Made by a program: the position numbers and the translations under genes
Notes under the pieces: model-generated
The model's input: the letters and a program-made list of their open reading frames with translations, nothing else
Told to the model about the DNA's origin: nothing
Databases searched by the model: none
Shown: one piece after another, positions 26,282 to 28,011 of the stretch
Position numbering within the stretch: the stretch's first letter is position 1
How the letters are laid out: each line of letters starts with the position of its first letter
Source: Candidatus Latescibacterota bacterium
Lineage (GTDB): Bacteria; Latescibacterota; UBA2968; UBA8231
Direction of reading: 5' to 3'
Assembly: GCA_965221775.1 (NCBI GenBank)
Contig: CBDCSU010000005.1
Location: forward strand, 96,001 to 160,000
Length of the DNA stretch: 64,000 bases

Positions 26282-27433
26282 CTACCCGTGCGGGAGGCGC
26301 GTCTCCATCTCGTCATAGGGCAGGTGGATGGCGTGGGCCGCTACCAACTCCCCGTAGGGGGCGACCGTGCGCCTCGCCACCTCGAGAGCCGTGTCCACGG
26401 CCCCTGTCTCTCCGCGGACGACGCAGGCGGTCAGGAAGTAGCCCGCCTTGTAGCGGCCCTCGTAGGCCACGTCGGCGTTCTTGAGCATCTCGTCGAGGGC
26501 CTTGACAAGGCCGGCGGTGGTGCGCGTCTCCACCAGGCCCAGGGCACGGCCGGCCAGGTTGCGCGCGCCGGGGGACTCCCCGGGCCGGGCGAAACAGCAC
26601 ACGACCTGCGGGTCGGGGCCGCTGATCACCACCTGCCCCTCCAGCTCCGCCGTCTCCCCGGCCCGGCGGGCGCCCTCGGCAACGGCGGCGCCGACCTCGT
26701 CCAGGGATCCGGAGGCGATCGCCGCCACGCGGCCCCCGCTGCCGATCGTCAGTCTCTCCAGGTCGACACGCCCTCCCTTCACCATGCCGTCGACGGCGGC
26801 CACCGAGCCCGCGTATCCCGTGGCCTCGACGATCCCGAGAGCGGCCGCGGTGGGCGTGTCGCCCGGGGGAATGGAGGGCAGCAGGACGCCCACTTCGGCC
26901 TCCGGTTGGGGCAGCACCAGGGCGGCGTGGAACTCCCCTGCTCTCCGGGACGCCTCTTCCCCGGCCTGCACGGCCGCCTCCACCGACCCCACCGAGCCGC
27001 TGACGGCGGCATGCACCAGGCCGCCGCCGATGAAGGCCCAGCCGTGGAGCTCGACGGCGCCGGCCTTGACCATGGCGTCGGCGCCGACGGCCAGGGGGAC
27101 GAGGCCCCGCGTCTCCAGGAGGCCGATGGCCTGGAGGCCGGGCCCGGGCTCGAGAGCGGCGCCGAGGTGCGGCATCGACTCGAGGGCGGCGGAGTCGGCC
27201 CCCGGTACGAGCGCCGCCGTGATCACCTCGCCGTGGGCGGCGGCCGCTTCCCGGCCCGCCTCGAGGGCGGTGCGGGCGTCGGCCGTGGCGCCTTCGACGA
27301 TCACGGTCAACCAGCCGGAGCCGATGCCGTGGTGTCCCGCCAGGCGCACGGAGGCCGCCTTGTGCATCGAGTCGACGGCGGCCGCCAGGGCCGTCATGCC
27401 CCTGACCTCCAGGATGCCCAGGGCGCTCTCCAT
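26282..27433 (-). CDS. BMC shell protein with four tandem BMC (Pfam00936-type) domains, 383 aa
   Basis: Four A(L/I)G(I/L)(L/V)E..G...D.M.K repeats: [64 protein letters not shown]. The ATG overlaps the upstream stop (TGATG). Confidence 0.9.
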   Translation of the reverse strand: MESALGILEVRGMTALAAAVDSMHKAASVRLAGHHGIGSGWLTVIVEGATADARTALEAGREAAAAHGEVITAALVPGADSAALESMPHLGAALEPGPGLQAIGLLETRGLVPLAVGADAMVKAGAVELHGWAFIGGGLVHAAVSGSVGSVEAAVQAGEEASRRAGEFHAALVLPQPEAEVGVLLPSIPPGDTPTAAALGIVEATGYAGSVAAVDGMVKGGRVDLERLTIGSGGRVAAIASGSLDEVGAAVAEGARRAGETAELEGQVVISGPDPQVVCCFARPGESPGARNLAGRALGLVETRTTAGLVKALDEMLKNADVAYEGRYKAGYFLTACVVRGETGAVDTALEVARRTVAPYGELVAAHAIHLPYDEMETRLPHG

Positions 27434-28011
27434 CAGCCTGCCCCGGCGGCCGGACGGAAGAGGAGGAAGGCCCGCAGCACCGACGGCAGGGGGCGGGGGA
27501 TCACCGCCGATGCCATGAACCACTCGCTGCCGCCCAGGCGCTCGCGGCCGCGGTCGATGGCCTGCTCGACGGCGTCCACGGCGCCGGTGATCAGGCTGCA
27601 GACGACGCGGTTGTGCACGGTGAGGACCTTGGCCACGGCCACGTCGGCGGCCTTCACCATGGCGTCGTTCACCTCCACGTGGACGCCGTACCCCCGCGTC
27701 TCGATCAGGCCCAGGGCGCCGGCCTCGGCCTCGCCCGAGGGAAGGGGGCAGCCGACGAAACCGGCACACTCGGGCTGAGGCTGATCGAGGCAGGCGCTGA
27801 CCACGTGGCCGGTGACGGCGCCTGCCGCCGCCTCGCCTTCGCGCAGGGCGGTGCCCACGTCGCCGAGGGGGCCGCGCAGGAAGAGGGTGGTGAACCCGCC
27901 GATCGACTCCCAGCCCATCAACTCGACCCGCGCCGCCTTGCAGGCCGCGTCAGCGGCGACGACGATCCCCGCGACTCCCTCGACCTCGATCATCCCCATG
28001 GCGTCGGACAC
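27433..28011 (-). CDS. BMC shell protein with two tandem BMC domains (BMC-T-like)
   Basis: AMGMIEVEG..DAACKAA and ALGLIETRG..DAMVKAA...VIPRPL. Confidence 0.9.
   Translation of the reverse strand: MSDAMGMIEVEGVAGIVVAADAACKAARVELMGWESIGGFTTLFLRGPLGDVGTALREGEAAAGAVTGHVVSACLDQPQPECAGFVGCPLPSGEAEAGALGLIETRGYGVHVEVNDAMVKAADVAVAKVLTVHNRVVCSLITGAVDAVEQAIDRGRERLGGSEWFMASAVIPRPLPSVLRAFLLFRPAAGAG

Follow-up and report, generated by a model that had tools for sequence, protein, structure and literature searches.

The 64,000-nucleotide stretch of Candidatus Latescibacterota DNA analyzed here (the window) encodes two overlapping bacterial microcompartment (BMC) shell proteins that, on computational evidence, probably form an obligate 1:1 asymmetric pseudohexamer. 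One of them, which we call Q, is a 383-amino acid (aa) protein with four tandem canonical BMC (PF00936) domains (26282..27433, minus strand), identified from its open reading frame (ORF), translation, Pfam matches and AlphaFold2 model, and the other, T', is a 192-aa two-domain BMC partner with a GTG start codon (27433..28011, minus strand), identified from its translation and Pfam matches. U denotes the ordinary BMC-T of the same locus, and coordinates are positions in the window, obtained by subtracting 96000 from the contig coordinate. The architecture of Q and T' is conserved, the two genes strictly co-occur, and their six domains are orthologous position by position. A sequence-only reading of the window had left two solutions for the four domains of Q, a 1:1 ring with T' or a double ring made from three Q chains, and it is the 1:1 4+2 ring that is favored, by synteny in 67 of 67 loci, a phyletic match in 168 genomes, six orthologous domain positions, conserved open faces at the ends of the Q arc, and the complex model.

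The Q frame runs uninterrupted from ATG to TGA over 383 codons, and Pfam finds in it four PF00936 stretches (E 9.7e-61, 202.1 bits against a gathering cut-off of 24.5), as expected from the earlier description of four complete, divergent BMC domains in one ORF. T' contains two such stretches (E 2.3e-34, 117.6 bits). Since the best stretches in both proteins span the 75-position profile from end to end (1-75) and in normal order, the domains of Q and T' are complete and non-permuted, and a PF00936 scan of the whole genome recovers them as six separate matches, all above the cut-off. The two genes meet in a TGATG (27431..27435, minus strand), the combined T' stop and Q start that is a signature of translational coupling: in GGCTGATGGAG the TGA of T' (27435..27433) and the ATG of Q (27433..27431) have one base in common, and the overlap with a two-domain gene upstream is therefore as first described.

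The genome scan and an alignment place all six domains on the minus strand. In Q these are Q1 (27203..27424; pore loop H-G-I-G-S-G-W, edge D21..K25), Q2 (26903..27130; F-I-G-G-G/A-L, edge D119..K123), Q3 (26615..26842; I-G-S-G-G-R with the invariant R235, edge D215..K219) and Q4 (26324..26545; Y-K-A/V-G-Y-F with the invariant K329, edge D314..K318), and in T' they are T'1 (27796..28002; W-E-S-I-G-G-F, edge D21..K25) and T'2 (27490..27717; the nearly invariant L-T-V-H-N-R-V-V-C, edge D116..K120). When the six are aligned to the BMC-H of the locus, the sole internal gap is one residue in T'1. The three linkers of Q are about 20-27 residues long and the single linker of T' is of similar length. 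Both sets of motifs listed in the sequence-only reading, the edge motifs KAA, KAG, KGG, KNA, KAA and KAA and the differing pore loops IGSG, IGGG, GSGG, AGYF, IGGF and VHNR, are present as given.

Q belongs to a conserved family. Searched against 5.8 billion proteins, it matches 145 clusters at E<=0.001 out of the 8000 candidates that were scored, and in 119 of the 120 clusters listed the protein is 369-402 aa long, the remaining one being a 320-aa chimera-like entry. Identity to Q in these listed clusters ranges from 99% down to 48%, and most span 97-100% of the query. The recurrence of the architecture in 119 of the 120 listed clusters and in 66 other loci excludes a missed stop codon between domains 2 and 3 or an assembly artefact. 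Each domain has its own signature in an alignment of 50 Q sequences (identity down to 48%): G-I-G-S-G-W in Q1, W-x-F-I-G-G-A-L-x-H in Q2, I-G-S-G-G-R in Q3 and Y-K-V-G-Y-F-L-T-A in Q4. The linker between Q1 and Q2 contains an invariant P-H preceded by the nearly invariant M87, and the C-terminus carries an R-L-P-H motif, in which R379 and H382 are invariant. The family is nevertheless narrow, since a library of 1.84 billion representatives clustered at 50% identity holds only 16 proteins at E<=1e-30, and NCBIfam has no model for it, the matches coming from generic shell-protein models only.

This conservation bears on whether Q is part of a closed tile at all. Four domains are unable to close a ring alone, and Q could be viewed as an open arc or scaffold that caps a facet edge or nucleates assembly, or as a decaying fusion with no structural role. 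The decaying fusion is excluded by the length range kept in all but one of the listed homologs. An open arc is hard to reconcile with the strong purifying selection along the full length of Q (mean column identity 64% and 64 invariant columns in the 50 sequences), with the conservation of all four edge lysines and of all interface faces, and with the confident model of Q described below, and we regard this whole explanation as very improbable.

Is T' always found with Q? In a scan of one genome per species, with the Q start codons picked heuristically, 77 loci were found, of which 66 have an intact four-domain ORF, making 67 with the window. In all 67 intact copies, the Q start is preceded by a same-strand two-domain ORF whose end lies -41 to +30 nt from that start; the distance from T' stop to Q start is within +/-14 nt in 58 of the 67, and the two genes overlap in 48. 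Among the other 11 loci there is one apparent frameshift (L056), six are cut by contig ends (L059, L068, L070-L073), and four encode unrelated BMC proteins (L074-L077); the upstream two-domain ORF is present in five of these 11 as well (L056, L068, L071, L072, L073). The 66 loci are labeled Latescibacterota (40), Gemmatimonadota (21), Planctomycetota (1) and Handelsmaniibacteriota (1), with three unlabeled. In L056 (L056:3224-4431), Q is represented by a three-domain ORF and an overlapping one-domain ORF, an arrangement that is probably a frameshift or assembly error and not a natural split form.

A survey of 168 genomes of the phylum, with thresholds of E<=1e-43 for T' and E<=1e-20 for Q, found T' in 84 genomes, the genome of the window among them, and Q matches in 96. 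Twelve of the 96 (ten of genus g31 and two of genus g49) are weak generic matches, with E values from 1e-25 to 1e-28, 35-39% identity and internal stop codons. The Q match in G096 is also weak, and there T' is truncated, its match extending to the very end of a 2050-base contig. Q and T' are found together in 83 of the 168 genomes, and with G096, the 84th T' genome, set aside because the contig end cuts T', no genome has either gene alone; the co-occurrence check proposed with the sequence-only reading thus came out in favor of the pair. T' is also as conserved as Q, with W-E-S-I-G-G-F-T-T in T'1 and L-T-V-H-N-R-V-V-C in T'2 invariant or nearly so in an alignment of 47 T' sequences.

The six domains are not interchangeable copies of one another. 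From 24 of the 67 loci, chosen for spread, 215 domains were placed in a maximum-likelihood tree (79 columns, Shimodaira-Hasegawa-like approximate likelihood-ratio test support only). Q1, Q2, Q3, Q4, T'1 and T'2 each form one clade in it, with support values of 71, 93, 65, 99, 100 and 99, respectively; the tree resolves these clades but not their deeper order. Because each position forms one clade, the six positions are old and not interchangeable, and to judge from these sequences the 4+2 layout is older than the divergence of the sampled lineages. The stems of T'1 and T'2 are long, at 1.24 and 1.30 changes per site, and the domains of U and BMC-H sit on short branches. At all six positions the D-x-x-x-K edge motif is invariant (50 Q and 47 T' sequences). 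The lysine of this motif functions in tile-tile contacts, and the wording of Protein Data Bank (PDB) titles such as 'PduA with edge mutation K26A' places it at the edge; its sixfold conservation would fit a tile with six working edges. The pore loops, unlike the edges, differ. Four of them, including those of Q1, Q2 and T'1, are small (Gly/Ser), and conserved bulky or basic residues occur in three: an invariant Arg in Q3, an invariant Lys with flanking aromatics in Q4, and a nearly invariant His-Asn-Arg in T'2.

The AlphaFold2 model of Q, built from a 50-row alignment, has a mean predicted local distance difference test (pLDDT) score of 91.6 and a predicted template modeling (pTM) score of 0.90, and comprises four alpha/beta BMC folds, each with the order strand-helix-strand-strand-helix-strand. 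Foldseek comparison of this model with the PDB gives as best matches the chains of 6NER, a synthetic tandem fusion of BMC-H domains (template modeling (TM) score 0.88-0.91 on target, root-mean-square deviation 1.8-3.7, 179-190 columns), which is also the best PDB match by sequence (40-41% identity, phmmer E 1.3e-34). From the superposition on this tandem fusion, consecutive Q domains are modeled as ring neighbors. Single BMC-H chains match the Q model with TM scores of 0.82-0.96 on target. No PDB chain matched by structure or by sequence spans more than two Q domains, the best TM score on query being 0.45 and the longest matched chain 213 aa.

To model the complex, Q and T' were folded together three times with their own alignments. 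The interface score ipSAE is 0.82 (runs of 0.82, 0.79 and 0.84), compared with 0.00 in three controls in which T' (twice) or Q (once) was replaced by an unrelated protein; at least 87% of contacts are common to the runs and the partner pLDDT is at least 89. In a benchmark for this score, 58 of 80 solved complexes and 2 of 110 mismatched pairs reach the mark, counts that are only a rough guide to Q and T' because custom alignments were used here. Two junctions are modeled. At one, Q residues 5-89 (Q1 and its tail, with M87-P88-H89) contact T' residues 107-137 (T'2), and at the other, Q residues 304-361 (Q4) contact T' residues 7-85 (T'1 and its tail); there is in addition a contact of the Q2 pore residue 136 with T'. 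Both junctions use the same faces, with positions 5-9, 35-45 and 71-89 of a domain packed against residues 11-42 and 66-68 in the domain before it. In the model, the T'1-Q4 and T'2-Q1 contacts together give a closed head-to-tail ring, Q1-Q2-Q3-Q4-T'1-T'2, so that the modeling of the 1:1 pair suggested with the sequence-only reading does return a ring. From this model we infer ring closure and the contacts between Q and T'; it indicates that the pair would fit into a ring, and is not proof that T' is the specific partner.

What else might complete the arc of Q? One U chain or two BMC-H chains would also supply two domains, with T' then forming a separate tile. All BMC domains have a common interface geometry, complex prediction often gives good scores to proteins closely related to a true partner, and U and BMC-H are present in most of the loci. 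However, U-like and BMC-H-like genes also occur in genomes that lack Q (in the 12 of g31 and g49 there are generic Q matches only), whereas the gene that tracks Q exactly, and the one that is translationally coupled to it, is T'. The tree points in the same direction: U1, U2 and the BMC-H domain are short branches near ordinary shell domains, unlike T'1 and T'2, whose long private stems are expected of domains reshaped for a special partner. Completion of the ring by U or BMC-H is on balance unlikely.

If T' closes the arc, the two ends of Q should be constrained in the way that its internal interfaces are. Column entropies were calculated over the 67 Q/T' pairs for two interface faces defined from the model. 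Face A of Q1, which has no neighbor within the chain, has an entropy of 0.64 nats, compared with 0.70, 0.65 and 0.47 for the same face in Q2-Q4 and 0.92 over the remainder of Q1, and the free face B of Q4 has 0.45 nats compared with 0.61-0.75 in Q1-Q3. With entropies as low as those of the internal faces, the open faces at the arc ends are under the constraint expected of genuine interfaces, which agrees with closure by T' but would also agree with a contact of Q with Q.

The latter contact would be needed if Q self-assembles, with three copies providing twelve domains in two rings that are stacked or side by side and covalently joined through the linker between the second and third domains, and with T' forming a homotrimer of its own, the two genes being only co-regulated. 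Twelve is a multiple of six, double-layer tiles are known in the BMC-T(dp) class as described in the main text of the 2021 catalogue of BMC loci (PMC8217296), T' has the usual two-domain format of trimer-forming BMC-T proteins, and the conserved face A of Q1 and face B of Q4 would also suit an interchain Q4-to-Q1 contact. Against this, the four domains of Q are non-permuted, unlike those of the stacking class as that text presents it (PMC8217296), the linker between the second and third domains is not longer than the other two, and the monomer model sets all four domains confidently in one arrangement (pTM 0.90). Two rings would also need non-native pairings, such as Q2 with Q1, of domains that fall in separate clades, and the finding that T' and Q are never apart in the 168 genomes would be left unexplained. 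The double ring raised in the sequence-only reading finds no positive support, its domains lacking the circular permutation of the double-stacking class, and we consider it quite unlikely.

Several points nonetheless weigh against the obligate Q:T' pair. Adjacency of the two genes is weak evidence on its own, because shell genes cluster anyway, and it is the perfect phyletic match that strengthens the case. The complex score may reflect likeness to known rings more than specific binding, given that BMC hexamers and trimers are abundantly solved, and its controls were unrelated proteins, not U or BMC-H, when cousins of true partners often pass. A natural six-domain fusion would prove the ring order, and none was found: the 120 listed homologs do not exceed 402 aa, no search having been aimed by length at longer or shorter forms. 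Covariation between Q and T', measured as mutual information with average product correction over 67 paired sequences (about 20 effective at 80% identity), places none of the predicted-interface pairs in the top 100 (0.82 expected) and one in the top 200 (1.63 expected; Mann-Whitney p = 0.60). With so few effective sequences this last comparison is underpowered, and it counts neither for nor against the pair.

Some shorter and longer forms related to Q were considered. The short relatives P0125, P0130, P0131 and P0136 were rejected as natural split (2+2) forms: they start or finish in apparent out-of-frame sequence, and for that reason are probably frameshifted or fragmentary calls. P0124, a 310-aa protein resembling Q2-Q4, could be either a natural short form or such a fragment. 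Large stop-to-stop frames 5' of Q in some genomes were rejected as fusions since their frame differs from that of T'. A separate set of proteins from outside the window (P0133, P0134, P0135, P0137, P0138, P0139, P0141, P0142, P0152 and P0158) contains three complete PF00936 domains. They are 283-330 aa long, fall into separate 50%-identity clusters with 28-35% identity to Q, and have regular linkers of about 25 residues, several with an I-P-x-L-H-P motif. Two copies of such a protein would make six domains, another unconventional route to a tile.

In the assembly we propose for Q and T', the two proteins would be made in equal amounts from their translationally coupled genes and would assemble 1:1 into a flat six-domain ring in the order Q1-Q2-Q3-Q4-T'1-T'2, with the size and the six lysine edges of an ordinary hexagonal tile. 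A ring of that size and with those edges would fit into metabolosome facets beside BMC-H, BMC-T and BMC-P. As its six domains are all different, the tile would be without rotational symmetry and would have six distinct edges and a pore lined by six different loops. To judge from the modeled contact of T' with the Q2 loop, the loop of T'2 may extend into the center of the ring, and the conserved loop residues suggest a narrow, basic, positively charged pore, one per tile.

The locus in which Q and T' lie is an aldehyde-oxidizing metabolosome. AldDh, PduL, BMC-H, BMC-T and four BMC-P genes are encoded on one strand within 12 kb, the combination by which such a metabolosome is recognized. Reading from the boundary of the locus at LytB (34095..35399), the minus strand carries three consecutive overlapping BMC-P (EutN/CcmL) pentamer genes (33242..34088), U with two Pfam stretches (32688..33245), the single-domain hexamer gene BMC-H (32409..32675) and AldDh (30973..32397), all identified by Pfam, followed by a 393-aa ORF with no Pfam or NCBIfam match (29740..30921), a fourth BMC-P (29246..29575; Pfam) beside the PduL phosphotransacylase (28502..29239; Pfam), and a 160-aa Cys-rich ORF without a family match (28016..28498), upstream of T'. 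Downstream of Q, on the same strand and identified by Pfam and NCBIfam, are a DHDPS-family aldolase with an N-terminal extension of about 70 aa (25082..26269), a flavin adenine dinucleotide (FAD) oxidoreductase (23963..25063) and a second, divergent DHDPS-like gene (22947..~23900). The stretch 28502..32397, which lies between shell genes and includes AldDh, the 393-aa ORF, the fourth BMC-P and PduL, forms the core of the metabolosome. The three consecutive BMC-P genes resemble the 'BMC-P triplet' in the main text of the 2021 catalogue (PMC8217296).

For the 49 loci whose flanks are complete, relatives of these genes were counted up to 10 kb from Q. The DHDPS-family aldolase is near Q in 48 of the 49, and AldDh, PduL, the oxidoreductase, the 160-aa ORF and a BMC-P in 38 each. 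The DHDPS-family aldolase appears to be the signature enzyme of the metabolosome, its aldehyde is probably derived from a pyruvate-dependent class I aldolase, and the DHDPS-family aldolase, the FAD-dependent oxidoreductase and the second DHDPS-like protein are candidate cargo. The main text of the 2021 catalogue contains none of the terms pfam00701, DapA and dihydrodipicolinate (PMC8217296). Relatives of the 393-aa ORF were found near Q in none of the 49 loci, and the region around it has a G+C content of 0.644 (30001-32000) compared with about 0.70 elsewhere; it looks like a lineage-specific insertion. The 160-aa ORF and the DHDPS-family aldolase are alike over a collinear N-terminal stretch of about 55 residues (26% identity, E 0.056 in a single comparison) that is followed by a Pro/Gly-rich linker, and this common stretch may be a targeting or docking module for encapsulation. 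The whole genome contains 11 BMC domains, 9 of them inside the window; the two matches beyond it (C4:411161-411388 and C6:791900-792127), which lie in frames open over 366 and 165 aa, may represent satellite genes of the shell.

How does the Q:T' pair compare with known shell proteins? Both proteins belong to the PF00936 superfamily, by their profile scores and by the BMC fold modeled in each Q domain; the parts of the pair are ordinary BMC domains, and the proposed assembly works like a BMC-T pseudohexamer. A close natural likeness is to BMC-T(s) proteins such as PduT (3PAC/3N79) and Haliangium ochraceum BMC-T1 (5DIH/6N06), which also consist of fused canonical PF00936 domains with linkers of about 20 residues in a six-domain ring, and whose PDB chains match the Q model by structure and Q by sequence. 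T' resembles BMC-T(s) in its two-domain format and has the domain count by which that class, two canonical domains in a homotrimer, is defined. Q lies outside the class: with four domains instead of two it is unable to close a ring by homo-oligomerization, and the proposed ring would be a heterodimer of unequal chains without a three-fold axis. 6NER, the synthetic fusion in an H. ochraceum shell, likewise has covalently joined ring neighbors and shows that such joining allows a shell to form; unlike Q, it is man-made, with two identical domains in a symmetric trimer, whereas Q is natural, with four diverged domains and a separate T'. The CcmK3/CcmK4 heterohexamers of β-carboxysomes are built from single-domain paralogs in variable ratios. 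They too are tiles made from more than one gene product with non-equivalent pore residues, but the 4+2 stoichiometry and order of Q:T' would be fixed by covalent linkage and one heteromeric interface pair.

BMC-T(dp) proteins of the CsoS1D/CcmP type have, like Q, a domain count beyond one ring, with 12 per particle. As the main text of the 2021 catalogue presents it, this double-stacking class is made of circularly permuted two-domain chains (PMC8217296), and Q differs in that its domains are in normal order. The permutation that defines BMC-T(dp) and BMC-T(sp) is absent from the Pfam alignments, which run 1-75. The edge lysine of a hexagonal tile is present at every ring position, and closure of the six-domain ring is seen in the model only (0.82 compared with 0.00 in the controls). 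The same main text recognizes five hexagonal building blocks, and all of these have one or two domains (PMC8217296). No four-domain protein is mentioned there (PMC8217296) or in the available portions of the 2014 taxonomy (PMC4207490) and the Latescibacteria paper (PMC4454575), and our literature search found no paper on a four-domain shell protein, although the supplementary locus tables of the catalogue may list such proteins.

The role of the Q:T' tile in the shell we infer with more reserve. It is conceivable, and we put it forward tentatively, that the pair is a further class of building block, which, with each of its six edges and its one pore encoded individually, could take a set position and orientation in the shell, for example by a BMC-P vertex, and whose H-N-R-, R- and K-lined pore gates the anionic 2-oxo-acids that the encapsulated DHDPS-family aldolase consumes or makes. 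The Q/T' family is common in its lineage, occurring in 84 of the 168 genomes of the phylum and in records labeled Latescibacterota and Gemmatimonadota. The usual description of a shell is a tiling by symmetric hexamers, trimers that act as pseudohexamers, and pentamers, and shell permeability is discussed in terms of pores with three- or six-fold symmetry. A natural asymmetric 4+2 tile, if confirmed, would mean that evolution can address every edge and every pore-lining loop separately, which is what shell engineers have sought by making tandem fusions like the synthetic 6NER. If the three-domain proteins are counted as well, every partition of six would then be in natural use: 6x1, 3x2, 2x3 and 4+2.

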